NCBI GenBank assembly: GCA_051531975.1
Contig: JAOPTT010000022.1
Location: forward strand, 1-64,000
Direction of reading: 5' to 3'
Length of the DNA: 64,000 bases
Source: Spirochaetaceae bacterium
GTDB lineage: Bacteria; Spirochaetota; Spirochaetia; DSM-2461
Part shown: one piece after another, positions 26,108 to 42,934 of the stretch
How positions within the stretch are numbered: the stretch's first letter is position 1
Layout of the letters: the number at the start of each line of letters is the position of its first letter
The notes under the pieces: model-generated
What the model saw: the letters and a program-made list of their open reading frames with translations, nothing else
Databases searched by the model: none
Told to the model about the DNA's origin: nothing
Translations under genes and position numbers: made by a program

Positions 26108-26646
26108 ATAAAATAGCAAAACCACTAGTAGGAATAATAATGGGAAGCGACTCTGACCTCCCAGTAATGAAAGATGCAGCACAAATATTAGACCAATTAC
26201 AGGTTCCATACGAACTAACAGTAGTGTCTGCCCACAGAACCCCTGATAGACTTGTTAACTACGCAAAAACAGCAAGAGAAAGAGGTCTAAAAGTAATAAT
26301 AGGAGGAGCCGGAGGTGCAGCCCATCTACCAGGAATGGTAGCATCAATGACACCTCTACCAGTAATAGGTGTCCCAGTTAAAACCAAAACAATGAGCGGC
26401 CTAGACTCCCTATACTCAATAGTACAAATGCCCCCAGGAATCCCAGTAGCAACAGTAGCCATAAATGGTTCCAAAAACGCAGGTATCCTAGCAGCCTCAA
26501 TAATAGGAGCATCAGATAAAGAAACCCTAGACAATGTTGAACAATACAAAAAAGAACTAGAACAGATGGTACTAGGCAAAGCAAAAAAACTTGAAGAGAT
26601 GAAGTACAAAGAATATTTAGAAAATATGTTATACCCTCAAACATAA
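26104..26646 (+). CDS. purE: N5-CAIR mutase
   Basis: [35 protein letters not shown]. Confidence 0.97.
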
Positions 26647-26685
26647 TAAAATACTAAAAAACCAATCAATTACCAAACTAAAGTC

Positions 26686-26820
26686 TAATAACACCAATAA
26701 TACTCCAAAATAACCTCAAATATAGCCAAAAATATAACTTTTGCTATATGTACTATCAGTATAAATTATGTATTAATTAAATAGAGTTGAGATCGTTCAG
26801 ATATAAATTCTTTTACAATA
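26686..26820 (+). repeat. 135-bp element, copy 1 (contains an 11-6-11 imperfect palindrome)
   Basis: Shares caaaataacctcaaatatagccaaaaatataactttt(g/a)ctatatgtac...aattatgtattaattaaa with 32691-32825. Confidence 0.88.
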
Positions 26821-26835
26821 ATTTAAGGGAACAAA

Positions 26836-27855
26836 ATGATAAATAATTTTATAATACATGAGATACAAAAAGAGCAACACACTGACATTAGTAAGTTTAT
26901 TCCATCAAAAGTTGAGGTTACTAAAGATTATATTGCAGAATCATTAGTAAATGAATTACATAAAGAAATAACAAAATCATCAAAAAAAGTATACGGAATC
27001 TTTAAATCCACTTCATCATCATATTTTAAATTAGAGTTCGAAAAGCACCTAACTAGTGAAAACTATAATTTATTAGTAAATTCAGAATCATTTATCGGAG
27101 ATATTAATGGTGATTCATTGAGAAGACATATTAATGGCCAGACTTTATCAACTGGAGGACATATAATTCTCATTGATTATAATATAGGTGATACTAGATA
27201 TTTTGTTGTGGCTATGATAAATAATAAATCTGGTAAATCAGTTACTATAAGTAGTGATGGTATTCCAACAATTTATGAGACAGACCAAATTGATTTTTCA
27301 GCTCTAGATATAGCATGTAGAATTGATATTGATGCTTTTAATAATGGTGATGACGAAAAAAATTATTTATGCTTTATTTCTGGAAGGCAAGATATTGCAA
27401 AATATTTTGTAGATTTTATTGGATGTAAGAAATTTAACAAAAAGAAAATAAATTCTGAAAACCTTGTATTTATTATTGAACAACTTTCACATGATTATCC
27501 AGAAAAAGATATTATTGAAAACGCATTTAATTATATAAAACCAAAAATCAAAAATAAAGAAGTTGTAGATTTATATCAATTATCTGAATATCTTTTAGGA
27601 GAGGATAATCAGGATGAAATAATCAAAAAGGCAGTTGAAAATGGTATTCTCATAGATCATAGTTTTATCCCATCAAATTCTGAAATTGATAAATTGAAAA
27701 AGTTTGAGTTTATAGGGGATTGGATTAACAAACTACAATTCAAAAAAGATATTGCACTAAAACAAGATATAATTAGTATTGTTGATGATAGTACTATTCA
27801 ATTACACGATGTTGGTAAATTAGTTGAAAGAATAAATGAACTTAGAGCAAACTAA
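26836..27855 (+). CDS. Nucleoid-associated protein family (YejK/NdpA, NA37-like)
   Basis: FIIHEIQK N-terminus, STGGHIILIDY, LDIACRID, YLCFISGRQDIAKYFVDFIGC. Confidence 0.75.
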   Translation: MINNFIIHEIQKEQHTDISKFIPSKVEVTKDYIAESLVNELHKEITKSSKKVYGIFKSTSSSYFKLEFEKHLTSENYNLLVNSESFIGDINGDSLRRHINGQTLSTGGHIILIDYNIGDTRYFVVAMINNKSGKSVTISSDGIPTIYETDQIDFSALDIACRIDIDAFNNGDDEKNYLCFISGRQDIAKYFVDFIGCKKFNKKKINSENLVFIIEQLSHDYPEKDIIENAFNYIKPKIKNKEVVDLYQLSEYLLGEDNQDEIIKKAVENGILIDHSFIPSNSEIDKLKKFEFIGDWINKLQFKKDIALKQDIISIVDDSTIQLHDVGKLVERINELRAN

Positions 27856-29077
27856 ATTTATAAATGAAATTAACATAATATATAAAAACTCAATAAAAGA
27901 TGATAGTAATTCAGATATTATTCTCCAAACAAAATCTAATAATAAGGATAACGATCAGATATATAAAATATTAATAGAAGATAGTAAGAACAATAAGTTT
28001 TATGAACATGATTTTGAGTTTGATGTTGAATTAGAAAGTGAAGATCTTTCTAATATTTGTATTATTGTTAAAAGAAAAGTTATTATTGATAAGCTACAAC
28101 TATGGGTATATCTTGACCATAATCAATTCTATACAAGAAATGTATTTAATTTCCCCAAAGGAGATTTTTACATAATTCAAAGCCAACAGGAATCGGATAA
28201 AGATAGCTTGTTCTACAAAGATTTTGTCAGATATTTAGAATTTATTAAATTGATGAATGACTCTTGTGACTTTAAGAATACTCAAAACAATTACTCATTT
28301 ATTTTAGAAGGATCAAAACCATTTTGTATAAATATAACTAAAGGACAATCATTTAGCTATTCAAAATACTTAGATAAAATCTTATCCATTAATAAGAACT
28401 CTTCTGATAAAAACTCGTTTATTGAAGAATTTAGAATTATATTTAAGACAAATTTAGCAAATTATATAAAAATTCATAGATTTAAAGATATTATTGAATT
28501 TACTCCAGTTATTGAAGATTTTATGAAAGATGTATTTGAGGATTATAGAATTTTAATTAGTAAATTTTCTTTTAAAGAATTAAAAACACAATTTATAGAA
28601 GAAAAAAATAAATACACTCTACTTCTAAACAACCATATTAGTAATGTTATAAAGTTAATTTATTCCATACCTTTAAGTGCCGGACTTTCAATTATACTAA
28701 AAATTGAAGATACAGAAGAAGTTAGTACAACTATTTTGTTTGTTTCAGCATTTATATTTTTTGCAATAGTTTCAATAATCATAATAATTCACAATTACAC
28801 AAGTTTAAATTTAACCCACTCTTTTATACTTAATGAAGAATCTAAACTAAAGAACATAGATTTAGATAATGAAACTACTTTATTCAAAGATGAATTCAAG
28901 AAGCATTTTGATATGTTTTATACAAAAATAAATTTAACAAAAGTTCTAAGTATATTTCTAATTATAATTTTTATAGGATTTAGTACTTATTTTTTAATTA
29001 CTTCCTTTCATATTGATATAGTAAATATAAGGAAGATGATATTCGATGATATCAATTTCTTTGTCTGTGTAAATTAA
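27836..29077 (+). CDS. Hypothetical protein with about three C-terminal TM helices
   Basis: Overlaps the upstream gene by 20 bp; hydrophobic segments IYSIPLSAGLSIIL, ILFVSAFIFFAIVSIIIII, VLSIFLIIIFIGFSTYFLI. Confidence 0.8.
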   Translation: MNLEQTKFINEINIIYKNSIKDDSNSDIILQTKSNNKDNDQIYKILIEDSKNNKFYEHDFEFDVELESEDLSNICIIVKRKVIIDKLQLWVYLDHNQFYTRNVFNFPKGDFYIIQSQQESDKDSLFYKDFVRYLEFIKLMNDSCDFKNTQNNYSFILEGSKPFCINITKGQSFSYSKYLDKILSINKNSSDKNSFIEEFRIIFKTNLANYIKIHRFKDIIEFTPVIEDFMKDVFEDYRILISKFSFKELKTQFIEEKNKYTLLLNNHISNVIKLIYSIPLSAGLSIILKIEDTEEVSTTILFVSAFIFFAIVSIIIIIHNYTSLNLTHSFILNEESKLKNIDLDNETTLFKDEFKKHFDMFYTKINLTKVLSIFLIIIFIGFSTYFLITSFHIDIVNIRKMIFDDINFFVCVN

Positions 29078-29091
29078 TTTAACTTGATTAT

Positions 29092-29201
29092 ACATAACAA
29101 AGTGTTGGAAATGAAAAGATTTTGTCATGAAATCTGCAAGAAAAATGCAGGTTCCACACCAAATATTCGGAGCAAACTTTCATCTCAACATGATGTTATA
29201 C
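29092..29201 (+). repeat. attC-like site 1 (110 bp)
   Basis: ACATAAC...TGTTG[G]AAATGAAA...TTTCATCTCAACA...GTTATAC; internal ctgcaagaaaaatgcag hairpin. Confidence 0.8.
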
Positions 29202-29218
29202 ATATAAATAAAAAAATA

Positions 29219-29247
29219 TTGATATACTGTAGATTTTAAACTATAAT
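29219..29247 (+). promoter_or_regulatory. Cassette-internal sigma70 promoter
   Basis: TTGATA-17 bp-TATAAT, followed by RBS ggag before 29269. Confidence 0.65.
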
Positions 29248-29268
29248 TTTTTACTTGGAGAATAAATA

Positions 29269-31554
29269 ATGTTGGATCTAAATGAATATCTGCTAAAATT
29301 GAATGATAATAAATTACATGACAATAATGTTCTTAAATTATTTATACTCTTTTGGGATGAAATATCAATTAATATAAAAGATCCTTCCAATAAAAAAAAT
29401 AACTTTGATCATCTATTAAGAAAATATCAGTTTTCTAATGCACCAATCAATAAGAAAATTAAAAACAACAACAATAACCAACTAATTGATAATGATTTAA
29501 GAATAAAAAATATTTTTATGCACTCAGTAAAAGGTATTGAACCCTTAAAAAAAGAATATCCCCAAATACCCTACGGAATAAATCTTTACAAAAATTCGAA
29601 AGTAAATAGTGCTATTATCATTGGTAATAATGGTTCAGGGAAATCATCTATTTTCTCAGCATTAGAGAAAATTTATACAGGTAGAATTGGAGAACAAGAA
29701 ATAAGAGAAGCTAGTGGTAATTATCTTCAGAGTAAAAATACTAATACTGCTCCATTCTGTTCTATTACTACGATTAATCGTGAGTTTAGTTTAGATGAAC
29801 CAATCTATAAACAAATAGATTTGATTAGTTCTAACCCAGATAGTAGTTTTATTAGTGAATATGATATTCAACAAAATAGTGTAATAAATACTGATGGATC
29901 AAATAATGGTCTTTCTGATCTAATTGCTTCACAAATTGGGTTAACAGATTTTCTAAATTTAAAAAAATATTGTTATGAAATAAACAACTACAGAAGAACA
30001 AGTGAAACGAGTAATTACAATAAAAATATAAAAAGACAAAATTCAATAAATGGTGAAGTAAAAAAAATAAATGAACGAATCGATAACTTAAAAGATAACA
30101 ATATAAAATCAGATGAATCTTCATACTCATTAATAAATGAAGTAAATAAAATGATTTTGAAGTTTGAAAATGATTTGGTTGATGACTTTAATTTTACTCC
30201 AATAGTAGAACATATAAGTAACTTTTCATCATTATTTGCTAAATACAATCTTTTAAAAGATACTCATAAATTGAATAAAGGGAATTTTTATGAACAAGGA
30301 CTAGAATTTTTAAAAAGTGAAACTGATTGTCCATTTTGTGGTAATTCGAAACTAGATTTTAATGAAATAAAGGTTTTGATTGAAACTGAAATTAATAAAG
30401 ATAAAGAAACGATTAAATTAAGAGAAGAAGTAATACAAAATATAAATAAAATTTCACTTCTTTCGCATGTATTTGTAAATTCATATACTAAATTAAGAAA
30501 TATATTGTTTGATGATTTAAATTTGAATATTAATTCTGAAGGGGAGTTTGAAGTCTATAAATCAACAACAAAAGATTTTTTAAATAATAACTTATTTTAT
30601 GAAGAATTAAGTGAGTTACTAGTTTTTTTAGACAATAATAAAAAAATAAGTGATTCCGAAATTTTTAAAAAGCATGAAAAAGTAATCAGTATTTTTTCAA
30701 AATTCAACATAAATCATGAATTAGAGATATTAGAAACTCATCTACATATAAGGGATGAATTTGTTTCAAATATTCTTAAGTTTTTAAAACAGATAGCTAG
30801 CTTAGACGATAAACAAGATGCTGATTTTGAACTTAAGTCATTAGAACAAAATATTAGTAATTTAAAAATCGAGTATAACGATTTACAAAAAAACGAACCT
30901 AATTTAGATCAGCAAAAAGAATTATATAATAATATAAAAAATGATATTAAAGTTTTATATGATATTATAGCTGTAGAAATTGAAAATATAATAAAAGAAG
31001 AGATAGCCCCACTCAAAAGTACTGTTGAAACAACTATGAAACCTTTTTTGACTGAAGATGATATTGAATTAGAAATTAATTTTGAAAATGAATTAACTAT
31101 TTCATTAGTAAAAAATGGATCTTTTTTTAACCCTAAAGAATATTTTAATAATGCAAGATATAAAATATTCTGTGGAGCATTAGCAATTGCAATAGCATTA
31201 GCATCAAGGAAATCATCAGGTGTTAATTTACCTTTAATAATGGATGATGAATTTTTTGATTGTGATATTCTTAATAGAATACAATTTGAAATATTTTTTG
31301 AGAGCATTTTATCTTTATATAAAAATACTACTCCAGAAATGCCTCTACAATTTATATTATTTACACATGATGAATTAATTTTTGAAAGTGCAAAAAAAGC
31401 GGTTATATCTTATCAATTAAAGAATAATGTAGTTTGTAATGACACAATATATGCCAGATTATTTCCCTCGACCCAAACCAATAATGAACCAGAAAGTATA
31501 AATGACTTAAGATTTTGGAATTTACTATATGAGTTTAAATATGGAGAAAAATAG
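29269..31554 (+). CDS. Rad50/SMC-like ABC ATPase with a zinc hook
   Basis: Walker A GNNGSGKS, coiled coils, central CPFC, Walker B LIMDDEF, H-loop FTHD. Confidence 0.85.
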   Translation: MLDLNEYLLKLNDNKLHDNNVLKLFILFWDEISINIKDPSNKKNNFDHLLRKYQFSNAPINKKIKNNNNNQLIDNDLRIKNIFMHSVKGIEPLKKEYPQIPYGINLYKNSKVNSAIIIGNNGSGKSSIFSALEKIYTGRIGEQEIREASGNYLQSKNTNTAPFCSITTINREFSLDEPIYKQIDLISSNPDSSFISEYDIQQNSVINTDGSNNGLSDLIASQIGLTDFLNLKKYCYEINNYRRTSETSNYNKNIKRQNSINGEVKKINERIDNLKDNNIKSDESSYSLINEVNKMILKFENDLVDDFNFTPIVEHISNFSSLFAKYNLLKDTHKLNKGNFYEQGLEFLKSETDCPFCGNSKLDFNEIKVLIETEINKDKETIKLREEVIQNINKISLLSHVFVNSYTKLRNILFDDLNLNINSEGEFEVYKSTTKDFLNNNLFYEELSELLVFLDNNKKISDSEIFKKHEKVISIFSKFNINHELEILETHLHIRDEFVSNILKFLKQIASLDDKQDADFELKSLEQNISNLKIEYNDLQKNEPNLDQQKELYNNIKNDIKVLYDIIAVEIENIIKEEIAPLKSTVETTMKPFLTEDDIELEINFENELTISLVKNGSFFNPKEYFNNARYKIFCGALAIAIALASRKSSGVNLPLIMDDEFFDCDILNRIQFEIFFESILSLYKNTTPEMPLQFILFTHDELIFESAKKAVISYQLKNNVVCNDTIYARLFPSTQTNNEPESINDLRFWNLLYEFKYGEK

Positions 31555-32578
31555 ATTGAGAAAAAGATTTTTTATAAGAATTAATTTAAAATTTGTTTAT
31601 GTATTATTGTTGCTAATTTCTATCGCAAACCTTTTAGCAGTAGTTTATTCATTCAGTAGCTTATCAAATAGTCAGAAAGTGCATTTCCAAAGGTTGGATG
31701 ATAATGAAATAAAAATCTCTGATTTTCAGAAATTAGTTAAAGATTATTCTAATATAATAGATAATTCAAATGAAAAAAAATATATAATTATTGAGAAGAA
31801 AGAAGTAAATAATATTTTAGAACTATTAGTATTTTTAAAAAATGATTTTGAAAACTCAAAGAAAGATGTTATTTCAGAAACTTCATTTTTCATAGATAAA
31901 GTGAATCTGTATTTATCAATTGGAATTGTTTTATTAACATTGATGGGGGTATTTATACCTGTAATAGTACAATCTTTTAGTCAACAAGATATTAAAGATA
32001 AGCAGAAACAATTATCTAAAAATCAAAACTTTCTAAGTTTAGTACAAACAAAGCTATCTAATGATTTTACTGAAAAAAATAAAATTGTAAAAACATTAGG
32101 TTCAGAAATAAAAAATATAGAAAATGAACTTAGAATTGAAAAAGCAGAAATTGATAAAAACAAAGATATTATTAAAACATTGCATAGTGATAGTAAAAAA
32201 ATATTTCCTATACGTCTTGTATTTTTATTAGATAAAACATTGGATAAAGACTTAATTAAACAATTTACTATTAGTCCTCAAAATTATATAAAAAGTATTT
32301 CAATTACAATTAATGAAATTAAAAATGAACTTGAAAACTGTTGTGAAAATGATATATTTCCAGATAATGATAATTTTTTAAAAGGTGGATTGAGAAAGTT
32401 TGTAAATGATTTTGATCTTATCTTATTATCTCTACATGATAGAAGAGCACTAAAAATATATGAAAAAATAATAATAGAAATTAAGAGATTTGTAGAATTA
32501 GAAAATTACACTACAGAATCATATATACCATTAATTGATGTATTTTCATCTGTATCTATTGATATCGTTAATGTATAA
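31529..32578 (+). CDS. Two-TM coiled-coil hypothetical protein
   Basis: TM segments FVYVLLLLISIANLLAVVYSF and LYLSIGIVLLTLMGVFIPVIV; overlaps the end of the ATPase gene. Confidence 0.75.
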   Translation: MSLNMEKNRLRKRFFIRINLKFVYVLLLLISIANLLAVVYSFSSLSNSQKVHFQRLDDNEIKISDFQKLVKDYSNIIDNSNEKKYIIIEKKEVNNILELLVFLKNDFENSKKDVISETSFFIDKVNLYLSIGIVLLTLMGVFIPVIVQSFSQQDIKDKQKQLSKNQNFLSLVQTKLSNDFTEKNKIVKTLGSEIKNIENELRIEKAEIDKNKDIIKTLHSDSKKIFPIRLVFLLDKTLDKDLIKQFTISPQNYIKSISITINEIKNELENCCENDIFPDNDNFLKGGLRKFVNDFDLILLSLHDRRALKIYEKIIIEIKRFVELENYTTESYIPLIDVFSSVSIDIVNV

Positions 32579-32680
32579 CCCTAAGGATTGATTCGACTAT
32601 AAAGGCCAAACACCTCGAGATCTTCAATTAAATGAGATTATTCTATGGTCTTTATCGTCGATTTCAATCCAATGTTCCTG
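32573..32680 (+). repeat. attC-like site 2 (108 bp)
   Basis: GTATAAC contains the upstream stop codon; ggattga-ttcgac-tataaaggcca / tggtctttat-cgtcga-tttcaatcc arms; AAT-GTT right core. Confidence 0.8.
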
Positions 32681-32690
32681 TAAGGCATCA

Positions 32691-32825
32691 TAATAACTCC
32701 AATAAACCACAAAATAACCTCAAATATAGCCAAAAATATAACTTTTACTATATGTACAATCAGAATGAATTATGTATTAATTAAAAATGAACTGAGATGG
32801 TGTAAATATAAATCTTTTCACAAAA
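32691..32825 (+). repeat. 135-bp element, copy 2
   Basis: Diverged direct repeat of 26686-26820, starting 10 bp after attC-like site 2. Confidence 0.88.
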
Positions 32826-33016
32826 ATAAAAGTAGTTTTTTTATATGGAAAACTCGTGATTTAAGATGTTATATTTATATAAAAATTTATCGTTATTAGA
32901 TTTATAAAATAAACATCTAGAACTAAAACCCTTTACGACATTCAATTTTTTTAATTTATAATAGACGAAAATAATGTTAAAAGTTATTATATAAATGAAT
33001 TTAAAAGGAATATAAA

Positions 33017-35617
33017 ATGGAAAAAGAGAACCAACTCAAAATATTTATCAGTTATCAGCATGATGATGAAGATCATATAATTGACTTTGGACGACAAGTT
33101 ACTCCACTTATTACAAACAAAGAAATTAAGTTATGGAAAGACAGAAAAGTTACAGGTGGAGAGCAACTTTTTGAGGTCATTGAACAAAATTTACGAGATT
33201 CAGATATTATTTTGTTATTTATATCTTCAAACTTCCTAGCTTCTCCAGCTTGTTTAGAAGAAAAAAGAATAGCGATAGAATTAAATAAAGAAAAGAATAC
33301 ACGAGTTATTCCGATAATCTTATCTCCATGTGGTTGGTTAGATGATAAAGAGATTCCTCACAAAATGGTATTTCCAACAGATGGTAAAGAAATTACTAGT
33401 TTTCCTGATAAATTAACGGGTTGGAATGATGTATATAATTCTCTTAAAAAAGTAATAGAAGAAGATAAAATACTAAAAAATTATACAAATAATAAGGATT
33501 TTTTAGATTTTTTAAATTCCACAGATTTCCTAAAAAATTCACATTCAAAAAAAATGGATTTAGAATTAGATGATATTTATATTCCAACCAATTTAGAATT
33601 TTTTGATGATATAAAAAATAATATTCAAACTATAAGTTCTGCAAAATTACTAGAATTTAATAAGAGTACAAGATTTATTATCGCAGGAGAAAACCAATCT
33701 GGAAAAACAACATTATGTAAGAAATTATATAAAGAACTTAGATCTAAAAATTTATTTCCAATTTATGTCAGTGGGCAAAACAAATATTTAGGTACTACTG
33801 AAAATATAATTAGTGAATCAATAAAACAGCAGTACAATTTTGATATATCAGAACTTAACCCCAATAAAATTATTATAATTCTAGATAACTTTCAGTTTGC
33901 AATAAATAAAGAAAAGCATTTATCTTATCTAGACAAATATAAAAAGAAAATTATTGTTATAGATGACATATATAATTTTGGAATAAAAGACAAATCAGAA
34001 CTAGCGAATTATCAAAATTTTAAAATAAAAGAATTTAATCTCAATCTAAGAACACAATTAGTTGAAAAATGGATTTGTATAGGTTTAGAGCCAACTAAAC
34101 GTGCATGTAATGAACATTTCTTATTAATTGATAAAACTTCAGAACTAGTAGAAACTTCATTAGGTAAAATAATAGGGACAGGAATTATGCCATCATTTCC
34201 ATTCTTTATATTATCAATAATAATTTCTACCGAAACCTTTGAAAAACCACTTGATCAGGATATCACATCACAAGGTTACTGCTACCAAGCTTTAATATAT
34301 CTTTACCTAAGAAAACAAGGGATTAAAAACTCTGAAATTGATACTTATATTAACTTCATAACAGAATATTCATACTTCTTATATAAATCAGATAAATCTG
34401 AGATATCAGAACATGATTTTAAAGTATTTATAGGTAATTACACTGAAAAATATAATTTAAGTATAAAAATTGAATTAATTTTAAAGAATTTATGTGAAGC
34501 ACAAGTAATTAAAATATCAAGCACTAGAAATTATTCTTTTACTTATCCGTATATATTCTATTTTTTTGTTGCAAGATATTTTTCTGAACATTTAGAAACA
34601 GAAAAAGGAGAAATAGATATAATAATTAACAATTTACATATGGATCGTAATGCATATATTACAATATTTATCAGTCACCATAGTAAAAATAACTATGTAT
34701 TAGATGAAATAATTTTAAATGCATATTGCCTATTTGATAAGCATAAAGAAGCAACATTAAGTTCAGATGAATTAGCTTTCTTTGATGAACAAGAAGAAAT
34801 AATCGCTAAAGCGGTATTATCTGACGAATCAAATCCAGATGAGACCAGAGCTAAAAGATTAAAAAATACTTCAGATATTACCGTTGAAAGTCCAAATAAT
34901 GTAAATAAAGAAAATGATTATATAGATAATGAAGAAAATAAAAAATATAATCAAATTCCAATAGAATTAAGAAAAAGTATTAAGACTATAGAAGTTATGG
35001 GTAGAATAATTAAAAATAGATCAGGATCTTTAGAGAAAAAAAGACTCGAATCTATTTTTGAAGAAGGTGTAAATGTTTACTTGCGACTATTAACTTCTTT
35101 CTTTGGATTAATACAAAATGAAGAAGAAATAAATACAGTTATTAAATATATTGAATCTAGATTAAAAGAACATATTGATAAACTTAAAGAAGATGATAAA
35201 ACACTTGATCAAGATGCAATCGAGAAAATATCAAAAAATATATTTTGGAACATGAACTTTTTTACAGTCTTTGGAATTATTGATAAATTAATACATTCTT
35301 TAGGTAGTGATTCATTGATAAATGTCGTAACAAAAGTATGTGATAATATAGATACACCTGTTTCAAATTTGATAAGACATGGAATTTTTATGCAATACAA
35401 TAAAAATGTAAGAACAGATGAAATCGAAGAAATGTTTAAAGATCTAAACTTTTCTGAAACAGCAAAAAAAATAATTAGATTTATGATTGTTGAGTATTCC
35501 AAAGTTCATCATATTGATTTTAGAGATAAACAAAAAATACAAAATCAACTTGGAATACCTGTAAAAACATTACTTAAAAAAGAATCGAAACATATAAAGG
35601 ATGCTATTAAAGAATAA
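33017..35617 (+). CDS. TIR domain + STAND/NACHT-like P-loop NTPase (candidate anti-phage protein)
   Basis: IFISYQHDD...ILLFISSNFLASPACLEE (TIR with catalytic-position Glu), VIPIILSPC; Walker A GENQSGKT, Walker B IILDNF; YSFTYPYIFYFFVARY winged-helix-like motif. Confidence 0.85.
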   Translation: MEKENQLKIFISYQHDDEDHIIDFGRQVTPLITNKEIKLWKDRKVTGGEQLFEVIEQNLRDSDIILLFISSNFLASPACLEEKRIAIELNKEKNTRVIPIILSPCGWLDDKEIPHKMVFPTDGKEITSFPDKLTGWNDVYNSLKKVIEEDKILKNYTNNKDFLDFLNSTDFLKNSHSKKMDLELDDIYIPTNLEFFDDIKNNIQTISSAKLLEFNKSTRFIIAGENQSGKTTLCKKLYKELRSKNLFPIYVSGQNKYLGTTENIISESIKQQYNFDISELNPNKIIIILDNFQFAINKEKHLSYLDKYKKKIIVIDDIYNFGIKDKSELANYQNFKIKEFNLNLRTQLVEKWICIGLEPTKRACNEHFLLIDKTSELVETSLGKIIGTGIMPSFPFFILSIIISTETFEKPLDQDITSQGYCYQALIYLYLRKQGIKNSEIDTYINFITEYSYFLYKSDKSEISEHDFKVFIGNYTEKYNLSIKIELILKNLCEAQVIKISSTRNYSFTYPYIFYFFVARYFSEHLETEKGEIDIIINNLHMDRNAYITIFISHHSKNNYVLDEIILNAYCLFDKHKEATLSSDELAFFDEQEEIIAKAVLSDESNPDETRAKRLKNTSDITVESPNNVNKENDYIDNEENKKYNQIPIELRKSIKTIEVMGRIIKNRSGSLEKKRLESIFEEGVNVYLRLLTSFFGLIQNEEEINTVIKYIESRLKEHIDKLKEDDKTLDQDAIEKISKNIFWNMNFFTVFGIIDKLIHSLGSDSLINVVTKVCDNIDTPVSNLIRHGIFMQYNKNVRTDEIEEMFKDLNFSETAKKIIRFMIVEYSKVHHIDFRDKQKIQNQLGIPVKTLLKKESKHIKDAIKE

Positions 35618-35621
35618 TAAA

Positions 35622-35731
35622 ATATGACAAAACATTGGATTTTAACTTTATTTTGTCATACTTTATGCAAGTAAAATGCATAAAATAAGCCAACCCTAGG
35701 GTCAAAACTTCCATTCAATGCTATGTCTTAT
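35622..35731 (+). repeat. attC-like site 3 (110 bp, GAC/GTC variant cores)
   Basis: ATATGAC...CATTG[G]A...TCAATG...GTCTTAT; internal atgcaagtaaaatgcat and caaccctaggg. Confidence 0.7.
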
Positions 35732-35817
35732 AGTGTTTAGTAAAATTTAGGATACTTTTAGAAAAAATGATTCCTTAAATAGAATTTAAATTTATAATAG
35801 TTTAAAGGATTTAAAAT

Positions 35818-36780
35818 ATGTTAACAGACAATTACTACAAACCAGGAAAATATCAATTTGATGATTCAAAAGAAAATTTTGACTTAAATTTACCATTAAA
35901 TGTTCTTCAAAGGTGTAACTTTGATTTCTTTAAACCAAAGAATGTTAAGATTGGGGTACTAAATAACCTTCTATATTCAGGTAAATATAATTCCGTACTA
36001 GGATTTGATGGTATAAAAAATATTTTAGTTTATTTTAAATCATTATTAAAAAGTTATCAAAGTGATCAGTATGTTCAAGGGAGTGATAATCTTACTAAAG
36101 TGTACCAAGCTTTACTTAGCTCTGGTATTTATATCGTTGACGAATACTTAAATAATGAAATCAAAAATAAATTTGATGATTCTAGATGGTTAACTGCTTA
36201 TAGATATGTTTCTAAAAACTTCCCTAATATAGATTATACCAGCTTCAGAACTATAGTTGAAAGGTTTAAAGAAACGAGAGGGTATTCCTTTTATATTTAT
36301 GAAGATGATACGGAAAATTTAAAAACTGTATTAAAGAATAAAATATTATTTGATGAAGTTGTTGACATCAAGGCAGAACTATTACAACTAAATATGTCTG
36401 AATTAAGAAGTTTATGCACTAAATACTCAGTAAAAGCTGCTAGAACTTTATTAGAAACAGCTGAAAGGCTAGCTAATGAAATAGGAGAGGATATACGAAA
36501 AGATTTACCTGATAGAGTATCATCTAGGGGAAATTTAGTTATAAAAGATTCTGAACTGGCAACTGGAAATGATATTATTTCTTTAGATAAATACTTACGA
36601 GAATTAGCAAAAATAATTAGAAATGAATTTTATTCAATTATTGATTTTAGATCAAAAAATATGTTCTTTGATGAAGTCTATAAAGATCGATCCGAAAGAA
36701 GATTACAAGGACGAATTCAATATGAAGGTAAAATGAAACAATGGGCCAAAGAAAACGGATTTGAAATTTTAAATTTTTAA
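35818..36780 (+). CDS. Hypothetical protein with a SAP-like DNA-binding motif
   Basis: Long ORF with RBS aagga; LLQLNMSELRSLCTKYSVKAARTLLETAERL resembles the SAP consensus. Confidence 0.65.
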   Translation: MLTDNYYKPGKYQFDDSKENFDLNLPLNVLQRCNFDFFKPKNVKIGVLNNLLYSGKYNSVLGFDGIKNILVYFKSLLKSYQSDQYVQGSDNLTKVYQALLSSGIYIVDEYLNNEIKNKFDDSRWLTAYRYVSKNFPNIDYTSFRTIVERFKETRGYSFYIYEDDTENLKTVLKNKILFDEVVDIKAELLQLNMSELRSLCTKYSVKAARTLLETAERLANEIGEDIRKDLPDRVSSRGNLVIKDSELATGNDIISLDKYLRELAKIIRNEFYSIIDFRSKNMFFDEVYKDRSERRLQGRIQYEGKMKQWAKENGFEILNF

Positions 36781-36792
36781 AAAGGAAATATT

Positions 36793-38136
36793 ATGAGTTA
36801 CTTTATTATTGCAGTATTAATACTATGGATTATCATTCTTTATTCAGTTATTAGAACAAGAACAAAAACTATTAAAGAAAAAGACGAAATTTTAAAAAGT
36901 AGAGAAAGTACAATAAAAACTAAAGAATCTATAATTGATAATTTAAACATAGATATAGAGAATAAAGACAAAGTTATTAATAAATATCAACCTATTATTG
37001 ATATTGAAAATGAAGTGATGACTTTACAATCACAAACAGGTCTTTTAGAAATAGATTATAAAAATAATAAAGAAAAATATACTTCTGAGTTAAATGAAAT
37101 AAAAGAATATTTTAGTGAATATGAAATGAAGGTTAATATAGAAGAATTGGGCTATTTCAAACCAAAATATAATTTTGATAGTACATTTGAATATGAAGAT
37201 GCATTAGAAGTAGTAAAGCAAGCCGAAAAAGAGTTAATACGAACGAAGAAAGTTTTTACAGTTCAAGACTTAAAAAATCCAATTGCTAAAATTGCCGTTT
37301 CTTCATTAAATAATTATTGTGAAAGAGTATTTAGTAAACTCACATATAACAATTTTCAAAAATCTAAAGAAAATGTAAAAAAAGAATTTATAAAAATTAA
37401 TAAATTATTAACAGAACAAGGATTTACGATTGTTGAGGAATATTATTTCTTGAAAATTCAAGAAATGGGATTAATATATGATCTATTAGAATTTGAATAT
37501 GATTTAAAAGAAGAACAGGCTGAGCTAAAAGCTCAGATGAGGGAAGAAGAAGCTGCAAGAAAAGAAGCTGAAAAAATAAGACTTGATGCAATTAAAGAGC
37601 AGGAAAGATATGAAAAAGCATTAGCACAAGCTCAAATAGATTTACAGGAAAATGAAGGAAAAGATAAAGATAAATTCCTCAAAAAAATCGAAGAATTACA
37701 ATCTAAATTAGATGAAGCATTAACAAATAGGGAGCGAGCTACTGCAATGGCACAAATTACAAAACAAGGTCATGTATATATAATTTCCAATACAGGTTCA
37801 TTTGGTGATGATGTATTTAAAATTGGAATGACTAGAAGAACTGAACCTAAAGATAGAGTCAAAGAATTAAGTGGAGCATCGGTTCCATTTCCTTTTGATA
37901 TTCACGCCATGATCGAAGCAGATAATGCACCCCAATTGGAAAATGAGTTACATAGACATTTTGAAAATAATAGAATGAATAGAGTAAATAAAAGAAAAGA
38001 ATTTTTTAAAGTTAATTTAGATCAAATAGAACAAATATGTGTTGATAAGGGACATAAGTTTAAAATGACAAAAGTGGCAGAAGCAAAAGATTACAGACAA
38101 AGTTTAGAGATAGAAAAAGAACAAATTAGAAGCTAA
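36793..38136 (+). CDS. TM + DUF4041 + T5orf172/GIY-YIG nuclease (SNIPE/PD-lambda-1-like)
   Basis: N-terminal TM, coiled coil, GHVYIISNTGSFGDDVFKIGMTRR, ASVPFPFDIHAMI, LENELHRHF, VNKRKEFF. Confidence 0.88.
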   Translation: MSYFIIAVLILWIIILYSVIRTRTKTIKEKDEILKSRESTIKTKESIIDNLNIDIENKDKVINKYQPIIDIENEVMTLQSQTGLLEIDYKNNKEKYTSELNEIKEYFSEYEMKVNIEELGYFKPKYNFDSTFEYEDALEVVKQAEKELIRTKKVFTVQDLKNPIAKIAVSSLNNYCERVFSKLTYNNFQKSKENVKKEFIKINKLLTEQGFTIVEEYYFLKIQEMGLIYDLLEFEYDLKEEQAELKAQMREEEAARKEAEKIRLDAIKEQERYEKALAQAQIDLQENEGKDKDKFLKKIEELQSKLDEALTNRERATAMAQITKQGHVYIISNTGSFGDDVFKIGMTRRTEPKDRVKELSGASVPFPFDIHAMIEADNAPQLENELHRHFENNRMNRVNKRKEFFKVNLDQIEQICVDKGHKFKMTKVAEAKDYRQSLEIEKEQIRS

Positions 38137-38247
38137 ATATAACAAAAAAAATGAAATTGACAAAATATTGTAATGTTTCCTGCTAGTAATATGCAGGAAA
38201 CACGACAACCCTGCGGGATAATTTCGCAACTCATTTTGACATTAAAT
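38137..38247 (+). repeat. attC-like site 4 (111 bp, right core eroded to ATT)
   Basis: ATATAAC immediately after the stop; aaaatga.attg / caactcatttt arms; tgtttcctgc..gcaggaaaca hairpin; caaccctgcggg. Confidence 0.72.
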
Positions 38248-38597
38248 ATAGGTGGGTACTGCTTGTTATTGTTCTGTTATAAGCCATCGTAAATGGCGGT
38301 AAAATCAACAAACTTCAATATTAATTAGGTCTAAAGCTTAAATTTATGGCTCCAGATTCAAAAAAATGTATTTAGATTAAAATTTATTTAACTTGCAATG
38401 CAAGTAAAGTGAAATAAAAGGAATTATAAAGTATTTTACTGTTTTAATATACTAAAGTAGAATATCTATATAATAGAAGAAAGATTTAGACCATAAATAT
38501 AAATAAAATTTAAACTAATCTTTTTTAATTATTTTGCCAGCGATTAAAACTGGTCAGTTATATAAGATGAGAAATTGTAAATAAGATCAAAGATATT

Positions 38598-39569
38598 ATG
38601 GGTAAGTCAGAAAAGGATAATATGAATAAAATAGTAATTATTGGTAATGGTTTTGATCTTGCACACGATCTAAAAACTTCATATTGTGATTTTATTGAAA
38701 AATGTATTAAAGATAATCCAATATTTTTAAATAACAGTAAATCAGAACTATTTACAAAAATATATGAAATAAAAAAAGCTAAAAATTAGGTAGATATTGA
38801 AAACCTATATTTTAGGCTTATATTAAATCTTATAGATTTCAGTAAACCACATCAAGTCAATTTAAAATTCATTAAAAGTCTCAACAATGATTTTGATTTA
38901 TTAAGAGTAAACTTAATCGATTATCTTGAAAATGAACAAAAAGAAAAGGACATAGAACCAAGTGAAAAGTATATAGAATTATTTTTAGAGGGAATTAATC
39001 ATTCGACAGATGACATAATTATAATAAATTTCAATTATACTGATACTGCTGAACGATATCTAAGGATTATTAAAGATAGAATTGGTTTTTCTAATAAAGA
39101 TAATATTAGATGTATTAATATTCATGGACAAATAAATTCTAGTACTGAAGAACCAATTTTTGGAATTGGTGATGAATATCACTCTGAATATAAAAAAATT
39201 AAAGAGCTTGATGACATTGATGAAATATTGAAGTTCAGTAAATCATTTTGGTATCAAAAAAATAATAACTATCAACAACTGATGAATATATTAGATTCAT
39301 ACAAATCAAAGAAAAGAGGTCACTTAGTCTTTCCACAGTATTGTACTATTGAAATATTTGGACATTCATGTGGATTGTCAGATAGAACCTTATTAAAATA
39401 TATATTTAATAATGAATCTATCAAGTCCATTATGTTATATCACTATCCAGATAAAAAAGGATATACACAAAAGACATATGATATCTGGAGACACTTTGAT
39501 AATGCTCATCAATTTAGAATGAAGTTAAAACCATTTAATGAGTCAGATATTATGCCTCAGATTATATAA
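38598..39569 (+). pseudogene. abiH: AbiH-family (Sir2-like) abortive-infection gene with one in-frame amber stop
   Basis: IIGNGFDLAH, N*VDIE (TAG at 38787-38789 where Trp is expected), NFNYT, IHG, PIFGIGDE, FGHSCGLSD, all in one frame. Confidence 0.88.
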
Positions 39570-39931
39570 AAATTGAATATGATTCTGTATATACTGAGAT
39601 ATTAAAACTATATTAGAATGATCTTTATCGATCATATAACTAAGTTTTGTTACCGATGTGCTATATAGTTCATTATAAATTATCTCAAATACAAACGAAT
39701 TTAACTGTTTTAATATCATACCAATCCAGTATGCCATAGTGTTGTTTTTAAGCATTTTAGCCACTCGCCACTATATCTAGCGTATTTAGACTTAAGTGAC
39801 TTGACTTATGAATATTTAATGAGTAAATTTATAATATAGTACATAAACATAAGGAGGATTAAATATATTAAATGGGCTTTCTAATTAATACTTAGAATAT
39901 ATTACAAATAGAACTATATGAGGTATTAAAA

Positions 39932-40174
39932 ATGTCAAAAGGTGAAGATAGAACAATTTTTCAAAGAAATGATGGTTGTTGGGTAAATCAAAGAAATGGG
40001 AACCAAAAAGCTACTAGTATTCATTCTAATCAAAAAGATGCATATGACGCCGCTAGAACAAACCATCAAAACAAAAAAGGTGGAGAAATCTCAATTAAAA
40101 GAGGAGATAATGGTAGAATAAGAGCAAAACATACCATTAAACCAGCAAATGATCCAAGAAACATTCCAGGCTAG
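39932..40174 (+). CDS. DUF2188-family small protein
   Basis: WVNQRNGNQKATSIHSNQKDAYDAAR...GGEISIKRGDNGRIR...DPRNIPG; RBS gagg. Confidence 0.85.
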   Translation: MSKGEDRTIFQRNDGCWVNQRNGNQKATSIHSNQKDAYDAARTNHQNKKGGEISIKRGDNGRIRAKHTIKPANDPRNIPG

Positions 40175-40251
40175 AATATTGGTCATAAAAAACAATGTTA
40201 TAAACAATAGTAAAATAAATTTAAAATATATTTAATAAGGGTATTTTACAA

Positions 40252-41586
40252 GTGATCAACAAAGATTTTAGACATCATTATGTACCACAATGGCTTATAA
40301 AAAAGTTCTGTAAAGATGATCATATCCCTAAAAATGATGATGATTTTCCAGTTTCTGTTTATGATTGTGATAAATCTAAAAGTTTTAATAATATTCCAAG
40401 AAGAATTCTCTATAAGAAATATCTTAATTCTATTGATCTAAATAATTTAACTAATTTTATCGAATACCTAAAAAACAATGGCGAAGATGTAGAAATATTT
40501 AAATTATTAAATTATACAGCTGAATACGAACACATATGGGAAAGATTTGATAGGATCACTTCAATGATATATAACATCATTGATAATAAAACAAAAATTA
40601 CAATTGATGATAGGGCGAATATAAGTTTCTTCTTCTCAGGTTCTTATTTTAGAACACTTAAAATTTTTAAAAGGGCAAAAGATAAGGTTTCAACTATTAG
40701 AAATTTATTACAAGATAATCTTAGATTTACTGAAAGCGAAATAGATACTTATTTGGGAGTAGATTCTACACTAGATGATGAAAAATATAGTATGTATAAG
40801 TTTCTATTTGAAAATAAAGATACATTTCAATATTTTACAGATTACCTACCAATAGTTCTATACACTAAGAGTGAATTTATTCTTGGTGATAATCCTGTAA
40901 TACTCCTTAATTTTTATCATGATAATATAAATAATAACGGACTTGCGAATGAGGGTACATTTGCTGTAACTCCTATTGATAAGCATAGATCAATTTTAAT
41001 GTTACCAACAAATTACTTAGATATGATATTAAATAATTATGACTTAGCTATAGCTGGAAATATATTATATGATAATTTTACAGGTGAAGAGATTTCAAAT
41101 AGTGATGTAATTAATAAAATTGATTATATAATTAAAAAGTTATTCTCACCAGAAAGTATAGGAATACCACTTGTTCAATATAAATGTAACATAAGAGATG
41201 TAGAATTCTTAAACTATTTACAAATAGCTAATTGTGATCGATTTTTAATTTCCAGTGATAATAAAAAAGAGATGATCAATAATTATTTCACTTCATACCC
41301 TGAATTGATTGACAGAAACAATATTTGTAGTGACTTGTACATCAAAACTGGTAGTGATCAAAAAATTGAAATATTTCAAAAGATTAAAAACAATGAAATA
41401 ATTAATGAAAAATGTGACTTCATGCCACATGTATATAATTTAAACTTAAAATATACAAACTTTTCAAAACTTTATAGAACAATAATATATAAAATCCAAA
41501 AAATAGCACGTGTTAGTATAAATCCTAATCCTCTGCTTAATAAAGAACACTTATATGGGAACAAATTATATATAGAAAAAAAATAA
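40252..41586 (+). CDS. DUF4238-family protein
   Basis: RHHYVPQWLIKKF N-terminus and FILGDNPV motif. Confidence 0.8.
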   Translation: MINKDFRHHYVPQWLIKKFCKDDHIPKNDDDFPVSVYDCDKSKSFNNIPRRILYKKYLNSIDLNNLTNFIEYLKNNGEDVEIFKLLNYTAEYEHIWERFDRITSMIYNIIDNKTKITIDDRANISFFFSGSYFRTLKIFKRAKDKVSTIRNLLQDNLRFTESEIDTYLGVDSTLDDEKYSMYKFLFENKDTFQYFTDYLPIVLYTKSEFILGDNPVILLNFYHDNINNNGLANEGTFAVTPIDKHRSILMLPTNYLDMILNNYDLAIAGNILYDNFTGEEISNSDVINKIDYIIKKLFSPESIGIPLVQYKCNIRDVEFLNYLQIANCDRFLISSDNKKEMINNYFTSYPELIDRNNICSDLYIKTGSDQKIEIFQKIKNNEIINEKCDFMPHVYNLNLKYTNFSKLYRTIIYKIQKIARVSINPNPLLNKEHLYGNKLYIEKK

Positions 41587-41624
41587 TATTTAATCAAAGT
41601 CTAATATTTCAATAGATAATCGAA

Positions 41625-41731
41625 ATATAAAAAAACTGTAATGGAAAATTATTTTAACTAACTCTCTGTAGAAAAAGCAGAGAATTCGGCAACCCAAAGG
41701 GTCATGATTTCTACTTCATCAGGCGTTTAAT
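41625..41731 (+). repeat. attC-like site 5 (107 bp, left core eroded)
   Basis: ATATAAA...ctctgtagaaaaagcagag...gcaacccaaaggg...catcaggc-GTTTAAT; same internal layout as sites 1, 3 and 4. Confidence 0.65.
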
Positions 41732-41863
41732 CACCTAATAGATAGGGGAAAACTATTTAATCTAGTATTATATCAGCTGCTTTTTCAGTTGAGATGTTTT
41801 CATGATTATATATAGATATTAAATTTTTTAGGTTTAGAGTGTTGTTTTCTATCTCATCTTCAC
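41732..41863 (-). pseudogene. Diverged copy of the hisS 3' end plus its terminator
   Basis: Encodes EDEIENNTLNLKNLISIYNHENISTEKAADIILD* versus native EDEMKSNTLNLKDLISKDNYENISTEKAADLILD*; offset 1184 bp. Confidence 0.9.
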
Positions 41864-41922
41864 ATGTTTTACTTCAAATCAGAGATACTTAAAATAGAGA
41901 TTTTTATTAACCTTTTGACATA

Positions 41923-42111
41923 TTATCTACCGTAAATATCCTCTCTGTCTGAAAGGTTTAAAGTTAATTTATCAAGCTGATTTACAAGTGGTAACATTTT
42001 ATTAATTATTTCTTGGGTTTCTGGTGTGACATTATCACTTAAATCATTTAGATTCTCATATATTGAAGTTATACTTTTTATTATTTTTTTATGTTTGGCA
42101 CTATTTCTCAT
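41923..42111 (-). CDS. Small helical hypothetical protein (62 aa)
   Basis: ATG preceded by RBS aagga; amphipathic pattern. Confidence 0.5.
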   Translation of the reverse strand: MRNSAKHKKIIKSITSIYENLNDLSDNVTPETQEIINKMLPLVNQLDKLTLNLSDREDIYGR

Positions 42112-42240
42112 TATTCCTTCCTTTATCCTTATTTAATTATAGATGTTTTTTTATATTTTAAATATTTTATTTCACTTTTCGTTTCTCTGTTTACCAAACT
42201 TGAAAATATTAACATCCCAATAAAGTGTTCTTTTATCCCA

Positions 42241-42304
42241 AAAGGGAAGCACCAACATCAGGAAGTTCAACCTTTGTATATAACGTTGTTAAATTATTAT
42301 ATCT
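42241..42304 (-). pseudogene. Second hisS remnant (motif-3 region)
   Basis: RYNNLTTLYTKVELPDVGAS versus native RYNNLASLYTKVELPGVGAS. Confidence 0.85.
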
Positions 42305-42686
42305 ACTACATTTCTGATATACAGACAAATTATGATTATATGCTTCATATTGATAAGATTAGGCATCCATGAGGGTGTATAATGTTAATTGTATTAGAAA
42401 AAAGAAAGTCTTTTGTTAATAATTGAGGCAACTGGTTATTTTTTATGGGTTTGAAAACATAAATTTCTGATGGAATTTGAGACTTATGGGACATTTATTC
42501 ATAAAGTCTGCTTATATCATTCCTAAAATATGGTATTGGTCTTGATTTGTGGGTATTTAATGTGAGATACTCCACATCTTAGCTCTTAATAAGTATTAAA
42601 CTTCTAAGATGAGATTATATTCAAAAGTTTACTTTCTGTTGAAAGATAAAATAGGAATAATAAATTAAATAGTAAAAGGAGAAATC

Positions 42687-42896
42687 ATGGGTAGTATTAA
42701 ACTATATGACGATGAATTGTTAGAAAAGGCAATCAAAAGATTCAAGAAGACGATCGACAAAGAAGGTATTTTAAAAGAATACAAAGCAAGACAGTACTTT
42801 TTAAAACCTTCAACTAAAAAACACGTAAGAAATAAAACTATTAAAAGAAAAGCATTTTTAAACATACTTAAGGCAAAGAAAAAGAATTCATACTAA
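42687..42896 (+). CDS. rpsU: 30S ribosomal protein S21
   Basis: LEKAIKRFKK..DKEGILKEYKARQYFLKPS; RBS aggag. Confidence 0.9.
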   Translation: MGSIKLYDDELLEKAIKRFKKTIDKEGILKEYKARQYFLKPSTKKHVRNKTIKRKAFLNILKAKKKNSY

Positions 42897-42911
42897 TTGC
42901 TTAGGTAATAA

Positions 42912-42934
42912 CTTCCCCTAATAGATAGGGGAAG
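42912..42934. terminator. Bidirectional terminator between rpsU and hisS
   Basis: cttccccta-ataga-taggggaag. Confidence 0.7.

Follow-up and report, generated by a model that had tools for sequence, protein, structure and literature searches.

We studied a 64,000-nt stretch of DNA (hereafter, the window) from a Spirochaetaceae bacterium, in which five gene units, each ending in a long imperfect palindrome, are placed between purE and hisS. The window belongs to a 65.6-kb contig (C22) of an assembly of 5.46 Mb with about 31% G+C. A preliminary description, made from the letters alone, had regarded the palindromes as attC recombination sites of integrons and the units as a bank of mostly anti-phage cassettes without an integron integrase (IntI), fixed at a putative purE-hisS hotspot and either served in trans by a distant integrase or now decaying. 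We found the five palindromes at the places described, each at the end of an open reading frame (ORF): sites 1, 3, 4, and 5 begin 1-41 nt past a stop codon, and site 2 overlaps one. The internal hairpin and the caaccc..ggg motif were also present as described.

The left core flank is purE, the gene for AIR carboxylase (26104..26646, plus strand; Pfam AIRC, 1.2e-67), and the right one is hisS (42941..44239, minus strand; Pfam tRNA-synt_His, 1.3e-45), which is 88% identical to the hisS of the congener G001. The genus contains three further genomes, and the comparison was possible for two of them, G001 and G003; the third, G002, is 71% complete, and its assembly contains neither gene. The ends of purE and of the convergent hisS are at 3396618 and 3396654 in G001, and in G003 the two gene matches are 19 bp apart; the spacer of about 20-35 bp in these genomes holds only a terminator hairpin. 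Since purE and hisS adjoin in the two congeners, the 16,294 bp that separate them in the window (26647..42940) are an insertion relative to these genomes. The G+C content of the insertion is 21-27%, against 29-38% for the flanks, and every sizeable ORF between purE and hisS is on the plus strand. In the remaining genomes of the family (the order contains the same 38 genomes as the family), purE was at most 59% identical. A metagenome scan with purE gave 80 loci with up to 74% identity, none of which had hisS near purE, and no closer strain was found.

The units extend from about 26684 to 29195 (unit 1), from 29196 to 32578 or 32673 (unit 2), and then to 35725 (unit 3), 38241 (unit 4), and 41725 (unit 5). 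The two strong defence matches were obtained in units 3 and 4. Unit 3 encodes a TIR-STAND NTPase of 866 aa (33017..35617, plus strand; Pfam TIR_2, 3.9e-15, and nSTAND_NTPase4, 9e-12), which matched PDC-S60 (1.1e-68) and a ThsB-like TIR (1.7e-25) in PADLOC. NCBIfam DS8_antiphage matched the same protein at 6.6e-137 with 457.8 bits (the equivalog cut-off is 790) over profile positions 301-994 only, and the N-terminus is a TIR domain instead. The second gene of unit 4 encodes a PD-Lambda-1 (DUF4041-T5orf172) protein (36793..38136, plus strand; Pfam MUG113, T5orf172, and DUF4041). The PADLOC profile covered residues 6-444 of its 447 (7.5e-115); by this full-length match, the protein belongs to the PD-Lambda-1 family and is a predicted anti-phage protein. 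The first gene of the unit, for a 320-aa protein (35818..36780, plus strand), had no match in Pfam, PADLOC, or NCBIfam.

Unit 5 contains a broken abiH gene (38598..39569, plus strand; PADLOC AbiH, 1e-8). Its 63-aa and 113-aa ORFs separately matched the N-terminus (1.5e-9) and, weakly, the C-terminus (8e-3) of Pfam AbiH, where an intact AbiH would have 260-340 aa and an end-to-end profile match. The gene is followed by a DUF2188 (80 aa) and DUF4238 (444 aa) pair (39932..41586, plus strand; Pfam, 1.1e-13 and 1.4e-19), of which the DUF2188 protein matched PDC-S16 in PADLOC (2e-12). DUF4238 is presumably a named defence family in DefenseFinder.

The first gene of unit 2 encodes an SMC/Rad50-like ABC ATPase of 761 aa (29269..31554, plus strand) with weak Pfam P-loop matches and PADLOC matches to LmuB (5e-8) and PtuA (1e-6). 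Its atlas neighbours carried AAA_23/SMC_N, and no relative with a solved structure was found for it. The second, for a 349-aa protein (31529..32578, plus strand), had no match in Pfam, PADLOC, or NCBIfam. Unit 1 starts with the gene for an NA37/YejK-like nucleoid-associated protein of 339 aa (26836..27855, plus strand; Pfam NA37, 9.3e-37; NCBIfam YejK, 8e-33, below the cut-off), for which PADLOC gave no match. The 413-aa product of its second gene (27836..29077, plus strand) had no family match, fell in atlas clusters named 'hypothetical' only, and had no homologue in any of the 37 related genomes (E<=1e-10). The earlier view that most of the units are anti-phage-like thus stands for three of the five, with one of the three partly broken; the match of unit 2 is weak, and the view found no support in unit 1.

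attC sites of the window and of the resident integron

A single IntI above the curated cut-off of TIGR02249 was found in the whole assembly when the genome was searched as the preliminary description had proposed. It is on contig C8 (C8:31744-32685, minus strand) and is intact, with 387 bits against a cut-off of 265, a match over model positions 2-315 of 315, and no internal stops. The same profile gave nothing above the cut-off over 14 control genomes. On C22, there was no IntI match of any strength, that is, no intI pseudogene, and a local alignment of the left edge of the array to the presumed attI region of C8 scored 17, with a shuffle mean of 19.8. The described absence of both intI and attI from the locus was therefore borne out. 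An IntI scan of genome contigs, with the lineage of the window outside its scope, gave 80 loci with up to 55% identity.

To the right of the C8 intI, on the plus strand, are five complete attC sites of 110-118 nt at gene ends, spaced at 1.2-1.75 kb, compared with 2.5-3.5 kb for the units in the window. Their alignment (n = 5) had a mean column identity of 75%, and RNAalifold predicted 38 pairs, 20 of which showed a compensatory change in at least one sequence. The common structure combines an R box of 4 bp (TAAC/GTTA) with a long L stem, whose L'' arm has unpaired bases, and its terminal part is branched. Beyond these sites, the C8 array ends in three truncated attC sites (C8:42061, 43266, and 45323), and the region around them (L007 10061-13400; G000:C8:32001-52000) holds broken ORFs and a 390-aa ORF on the minus strand, which suggests that the resident integron was itself disrupted after five cassettes.

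We built a covariance model (R1) from the five attC sites adjacent to the C8 intI, with no window sequence in the training set, and ran it on both strands of the full window with the filters off; a BLAST-short search with one C8 attC was too insensitive, and the model was used instead. The best four of the 24 matches listed were all on the plus strand and coincided with site 1 (74.6 bits), site 4 (74.3 bits), site 3 (66.7 bits), and site 5 (59.2 bits), with E-values of 1e-15 to 6e-12. Next among the 24, with 14.1 bits (E ~1), came site 3 read on its reverse strand. Thus, four of the five supposed attC sites are members of the family of the resident integron, and site 2 is outside the family (see below). 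Because four units end in attC sites of the C8 family, the units were probably made or moved by a C8-type integrase. An Rfam scan of 20000-50000 gave four matches, all with E>5 and all to eukaryotic families, and no attC family.

In the whole genome, R1 found at least 19 places (five on C8, four each on C22, C3, and C10, and one each on C5 and C25); in this search, 150 of 2167 first-look candidates were scored, and weak copies may be missed. This distribution bears on the reading of the palindromes as REP-like (repetitive extragenic palindromic) or terminator-like repeats that have nothing to do with integrons. The palindromes do follow genes, hairpins after genes in AT-rich DNA are often terminators, and one terminator-like match overlaps site 4. 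Genome-wide repeats dispersed without regard to gene ends were, however, not what was seen: the search gave only 19 copies across the 5.46-Mb genome, and these come in clusters, with the best of them beside intI, and have compensatory changes and AAC/GTT cores. We regard this reading as contradicted already and extremely improbable.

The C10 sites also form an integrase-less cluster, in which attC sites stand on both strands (L016, G000:C10:265001-285000, at 5085-14822), and its genes include those for a resolvase, a DpdB/DndB-like protein, an Abi_alpha-like protein, and a RelA/SpoT-domain protein (PDC-S33). PADLOC matches with E<=1e-5 were obtained for 5 of 13 ORFs or fragments between purE and site 5, for 1 of 9 in the intI-linked C8 array, and for 2 of 6 in the C10 cluster.

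The four sites in the window are eroded to different degrees. Site 1 (29092..29201, plus strand), 15 nt after the stop at 29077, has intact cores (TAAC...GTTA) and all four R-box pairs, and it alone of the four has the full pairing AAC/GTT cores. The other three have the altered cores that had been described. In site 3 (35622..35731, plus strand; 5 nt after 35617), the cores are GAC/GTC, which still pair, and the L box is eroded. Site 4 (38137..38247, plus strand; 1 nt after 38136) keeps AAC and has ATTA in place of GTTA in R'. In site 5 (41627..41731, plus strand; 41 nt after 41586), AAC in R'' is changed to AAA, 4 nt are gone from L'', and R' (GTTTAAT) is intact. Of the 38 model pairs, the C8 sites keep 32-37, site 4 keeps 34, site 1 keeps 33, and sites 3 and 5 keep 30 each; of the 17 L-box pairs, 16, 11, 15, and 12 are kept in sites 1, 3, 4, and 5, respectively, against 15-17 in the C8 references. 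The terminal hairpins are retained in all four (13-16 of 17 pairs).

We folded the bottom strands with DNA parameters and compared each with 200 shuffles. Two C8 attC sites gave -24.7 and -19.2 kcal/mol (z -6.6 and -4.1) with the canonical shape, and the folds in the window were weaker, at -7 to -17 kcal/mol against -19 to -25 kcal/mol. Site 1 took the canonical shape at -12.6 kcal/mol (z -1.8; 8/200 shuffles as good). Site 4 reached -17.4 kcal/mol (z -4.6) with its R box unpaired, and site 3 reached -13.1 kcal/mol (z -2.5) with a non-canonical minimum-energy shape. Site 5, at -7.0 kcal/mol (z -0.6; 45/200 shuffles as good), has no stable attC fold. By these features, only site 1 looks competent for recombination.

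Sites 3, 4, and 5 are on the same strand and spaced at 2.5 kb (sites 3-4) and 3.5 kb (sites 4-5) with no integrase nearby, and they form an attC cluster that lacks an integron-integrase (CALIN), for which at least two same-strand attC sites less than 4 kb apart are needed. A complete integron, with intI, an adjacent attI, and an array, is not present at the locus, as the sole intI is on C8. We conclude that the purE-hisS interval is most probably a CALIN, that is, an integrase-less array of attC sites of the resident integron's family, which is loaded with defence genes and mostly immobilised. In its outline, this agrees with the preliminary description, which had given decay as one of two possible states of the array.

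The array might instead be a working part of a distributed integron, from which the C8 integrase excises and reshuffles the large defence cassettes in trans. The genome does have an intact IntI and attC sites of the same family, site 1 is intact and folds canonically, and the changed cores of site 3 still pair; moreover, CALINs that co-occur with integrons have been proposed to exchange cassettes with them (PMC4889954). For excision, however, a pair of competent sites is required. A conserved AAC or GTT is missing from each of sites 3, 4, and 5, no stable fold was obtained for site 5, and no attC structure is present at the left edge of the array. The contigs of one DNA sequencing run, a possible source of the assembly, had no informative joint at the attC sites; the sole joint listed, from 40395 to 42070 with side 22, is not long enough to be trusted. 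The depth in this run was 26-27 against 32-38, a difference that does not translate into a fraction of cells. A second run, of RNA from that sample, contained almost none of the sampled words of the stretch. We consider a working array very unlikely and prefer the mostly immobilised CALIN.

Site 2 and the IS91-type unit of a congener

Site 2 (32573..32687), which overlaps the stop codon at 32576-32578, belongs to a second palindrome family, and R1 matched neither of its strands. The imperfect palindrome is real: its bottom-strand DNA fold has -13.7 kcal/mol (z -3.1), and 2/200 shuffles were as good. It has ..TAAC on the left, GTT on the right (R' is GTTCCTG), paired arms, and a variable loop, with its unpaired bases on the arm opposite to that in the R1 family. 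Its opposite strand shows ..GGAAC at one side of the palindrome and GTTATA at the other; in this reading, the arm that carries the unpaired bases agrees with the R1 family.

When the 37 relatives were searched at the DNA level, G001 gave four copies of site 2, with 91-92% identity to 32568-32687 of the window. They share the strand of the R1-type sites and lie within or at the margin of two arrays, one of which adjoins intI. The sequences upstream of ..TAAC differ among the four, and the downstream sequences are identical. Two of the copies head a 2.55-kb unit (98.9% identity over 2547 nt), and the other two head truncated versions of 982-988 nt and 462 nt. The full units (L019:5506-8044, which is G001:C1:1664506-1667044, and L020:5945-8490) are inserted at the AAC of R'' in two different attC sites. 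At the far end of both is an R1-type attC that starts at AAC, without the first four bases of R''. On the opposite strand, the unit encodes an IS91-family transposase (Y2_Tnp, 1.9e-48; Zn_Tnp_IS91, 1.5e-24) and a tyrosine recombinase (Phage_integrase, 2.1e-33). The arrangement is most simply read as an insertion of the palindrome with its unit in the R'' box of resident attC sites. Read on the opposite strand, the unit has GTT at both junctions, and its ends would pair at 11/13 positions if joined into a circle. Its behaviour is that of a cassette-like element in inverted orientation, and its mover may be its own recombinase, IntI, or the Y2 transposase.

In the window, the homology to the G001 copies stops 12 nt past GTT, which is the end of the extended palindrome, and no relative of the G001 transposase was found in the window or in the whole genome; only the 115-nt end is present. 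The 7 nt that precede site 2 (GTATAAC) resemble the R'' of a lost attC of unit 2. Site 2 is probably either an attC-like site in inverted orientation or what is left of such an element. We see about even chances that site 2 is the remnant of such an R''-box insertion, by which the attC of unit 2 would have been disrupted by a palindrome-bearing element that left its 115-nt end behind. We also considered site 3 as the split remainder of the attC disrupted by the element, and this was ruled out, as site 3 has a complete R'' heptamer.

Alternatively, site 2 could belong to a second sequence type of attC and be an ordinary, forward-oriented site, with the IS91-type element of G001 merely targeting its R' (GTTC). 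Its ..TAAC/GTT ends, its paired arms with internal asymmetry, its variable loop, its orientation, which matches the arrays in both G001 and the window, and its overlap with the stop codon of the upstream gene are all in keeping with this. Against it, the four G001 copies share their downstream and not their upstream sequence, and both full units run into R1 attC sites that start at AAC, which fits insertion in an R'' box and not an element in a free-standing attC. Furthermore, the extra unpaired bases are on the wrong arm compared with the R1 family, R' is GTTCCTG and not GTT plus purines, and the 12 nt past GTT are conserved with the copies that bear the element. An ordinary second-type attC therefore appears unlikely to us, and the R''-box insertion is the reading that we follow here.

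Tentatively, site 2 may mark a new integron parasite, namely, a circle with an IS91-family Y2 transposase, a tyrosine recombinase, and an attC-like palindrome end, which is inserted in inverted orientation at the bottom-strand GTT of R''. This possibility is somewhat on the unlikely side. If true, the insertions of such a parasite would destroy attC sites, weld neighbouring cassettes, and help to fix cassette banks as defence islands; units 2 and 3 look like an example. Elements of the IS1111-attC group and group IIC-attC introns also target attC sites. The G001 unit resembles them in its fixed position and orientation in the attC and differs from them in its genes, for a Y2 transposase of the IS91 family and a tyrosine recombinase, and in its attC-like palindrome end. 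No palindrome-ended element of the IS91-type/tyrosine-recombinase kind was apparent in the titles and abstract openings of the literature searched.

Further solo copies of site 2 were observed on C6 of this genome, in G002, and in G021. The C6 copy (L023, G000:C6:419001-431000, at about 2790-8053) follows a radical-SAM/SPASM gene, and downstream of it are an RmuC-family gene (PADLOC RTasRmuC, 1.6e-105), two small ORFs, and a second PD-Lambda-1 paralogue (1.9e-153); contig C6 has no R1-type attC. Among five diverse copies of site 2, the arms are conserved and the loop is variable, with a compensatory change in 2/18 pairs. The matches to the site 2 pattern in G011 and G022 (2/10) were rejected as chance, as they are inside coding sequences and have no palindrome.

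Insertion and probable fixation of the array

The edges of the array were read from the sequence. On the left, the R'-like heptamer GTCTAAT (26683..26689, plus strand), 37 nt past the stop codon of purE, is the probable crossover point; a single mismatch separates it from GTTTAAT, the R' of site 5. That R' occupies 41725-41731 on the right, and hisS-like DNA begins 2 nt later with a decayed duplicate of the 3' end of hisS and its terminator hairpin (41733..41866, minus strand; 134 bp, 85% identity to 42914-43047). The array thus abuts a hisS-type terminator, as expected for an insertion in the purE-hisS spacer. By Pfam, there is no transposase at either border. Because there is no intI pseudogene, no border transposase, and the edges are at R' or R'-like heptamers, we favour integrase insertion at a secondary site. 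Most likely, IntI would have inserted a circle of several cassettes at a secondary site of the G|TT type in the terminator spacer of 20-35 bp.

After the insertion, the sites would have been eroded, with site 1 alone keeping both its AAC/GTT cores and a canonical bottom-strand fold. The units probably bring their own expression signals, namely, a sigma-70-like match ahead of unit 2 and the 137-nt leader that units 1 and 3 share (see below). The array would now be a fixed defence island and not a shuffling cassette bank.

To the right of the first duplicate is a second decayed hisS fragment (42246-42309; 86% identity to 43287-43350), and both are closer to the resident hisS than to the hisS of the congeners. 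An ORF for a ribosomal protein S21-like protein of 69 aa (42687..42896, plus strand; Pfam Ribosomal_S21, 1.9e-13) lies inside the insertion just downstream of hisS. Sequences related to this ORF are present in the genomes of several relatives.

The hisS duplicates suggest DNA of a related lineage, and on this account the array may have another origin, as a piece of a former complete integron that was moved by homologous recombination or rearrangement and possibly imported with a hisS fragment from a related strain. The two direct 137-nt leader repeats that flank units 1 and 2 could mediate recombination, and rearrangement is one proposed origin of CALINs (PMC4889954). Such a piece would, however, have to be reconciled with a contig without an intI pseudogene, a left edge without attI-like sequence, borders without a transposase, and a right junction at most 2 nt from the R' heptamer of site 5. 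This origin seems to us somewhat improbable, and insertion of the cassettes by IntI remains our preferred route.

Several points weigh against the CALIN and its history as set out above. The left junction is GTC, which is neither GTT nor GAT, and its exact placement is impossible. The hisS fragments and the S21-like gene show at least one further rearrangement at the right edge, for which we found no explanation. Without site 2, the gap between sites 1 and 3 is 6.5 kb and exceeds the 4-kb rule (sites 1 and 2 are 3.5 kb apart), and IntegronFinder might call one single site and one three-site cluster. R1 derives from five sites of one genome and is not the curated attC model of IntegronFinder. 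IntI enzymes tolerate divergent attC sites, and the frozen state of the array is judged here from its sequence. Neither unit 1 nor unit 2 could be firmly assigned to defence. In a DNA search of the array against the 37 relatives (seven candidates scored per genome), there were short matches only, and no unit was found as a cassette elsewhere. The closest PD-Lambda-1 gene among the candidates scored was in G014 (68% DNA identity), with no R1-type site in the 14 kb of sequence examined there.

Scattered attC clusters are normal in this lineage, because IntI and R1-type sites are frequent across its genomes: of the 38 genomes in the family, 24 had an IntI above the cut-off and 22 had R1-type sites, which often formed several clusters in one genome (101 candidates scored per genome). 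In the intI-linked array of G001 (L021:155-5572; G001:C1:3604155-3609572), a run of attC sites spaced at about 399 bp with near-identical scores represents a tandemly repeated small cassette.

The array has counterparts in the literature. PMC4889954 describes CALINs, their co-occurrence with integrons, the 4-kb clustering rule, and secondary sites as a possible place of origin, and it also considers degenerate attC sites of CALINs a step toward fixation. Our array is like these CALINs in its same-strand attC sites after genes, the lack of a near integrase, the complete integron elsewhere in the genome, and its degenerate sites, and it is unlike them in its units of 2.5-3.5 kb, mostly with two genes, and in the one gap of more than 4 kb if site 2 is left out. 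Insertion of cassettes at secondary sites (attG), giving single attC sites lacking integron-integrases (SALIN), has been shown experimentally, with a GWT consensus (10.1101/2022.09.11.507474). The array shares with these its intergenic position away from attI, the right junction at the R' of the last attC, and the R'-like left heptamer; it differs in having five units and not one, in GTC on the left in place of GWT, and in that the insertion here is read from sequence. Defence systems in cassettes (bacteriophage resistance integron cassettes, BRiCs, in mobile integrons) and a defence island with a pseudo-attC site have been reported (10.1101/2024.07.02.601719), and the same paper cites sedentary chromosomal integrons as defence banks. 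In common with these, the present units are defence systems bounded by attC sites. In contrast to them, the array is integrase-less and largely eroded, it is in a low-G+C marine bacterium, its leaders are promoter-like, and its defence functions are predicted ones. Large, multi-gene, self-promoted defence cassettes and secondary-site insertion are already in the literature (10.1101/2022.09.11.507474, PMC4889954, and 10.1101/2024.07.02.601719).

If the array is read correctly, it is a natural example of cassettes that left an integron and became a fixed defence island, in a genome that has an integrase and an attC family of the donor type and with the empty site in two congeners. The graded decay, from one intact site to one that does not fold, supports the published idea that CALINs with degenerate attC sites are intermediates between capture and fixation. 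The array also supports the published idea that defence systems move between integrons and defence islands, and it suggests that this lineage handles cassettes of 2.5-3.5 kb with two-gene systems. Two leads for new biology are the palindrome-ended IS91-type unit in attC R'' boxes and a leader motif common to defence genes.

Putative expression signals and the shared leader

The preliminary description had assigned unit 2 a promoter of its own at 29219..29247 (plus strand). This sigma-70-like match (TTGATA-17-TATAAT), 22 nt upstream of the start codon of unit 2, is the best in the region, with 11/12 consensus positions. The region as a whole had no excess of such matches (141 against 138.9 +/- 12.3 in shuffles).

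The leader is a 137-nt sequence in two copies with 85.5% identity, one before unit 1 (26686..26822, plus strand) and the other at the start of unit 3 (32691..32827, plus strand). The contigs of the DNA run mentioned above break at a 30-nt exact repeat of the leader. We tested the leader as an attI remnant, and this was ruled out, as it has no similarity to the attI region of C8. Both copies contain a 22-nt motif, ATAGCCAAAAATATAACTTTTG, at 26722-26743 and 32726-32747. There are seven copies of ATAGCCAAAAATATAACTTTTG in the genome, each upstream of and directed toward a gene. The motif may be a shared promoter or operator, or a recombination site, and a serine-recombinase site was also considered; since all seven copies point toward a downstream gene, a promoter or operator fits at least as well as a serine-recombinase site.

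The other copies are at C6:624522-624562, C14:153983-154014, C14:157880-157905, C10:276557-276579, and C1:52912-52944, and ATAGCCAAAAATATAACTTTTG is at defence-like genes in four of these five loci, in addition to units 1 and 3. Such sharing may suggest a common regulator of self-expressed defence cassettes. On C10, the motif precedes a group of four genes, including the DpdB/DndB-like and Abi_alpha-like genes, that ends in an R1-type site. On C14, it is found twice before DUF6765 genes, one of which adjoins an AbiU/AIPR gene. Two copies of ATAGCCAAAAATATAACTTTTG are about 30 nt after resolvase genes.

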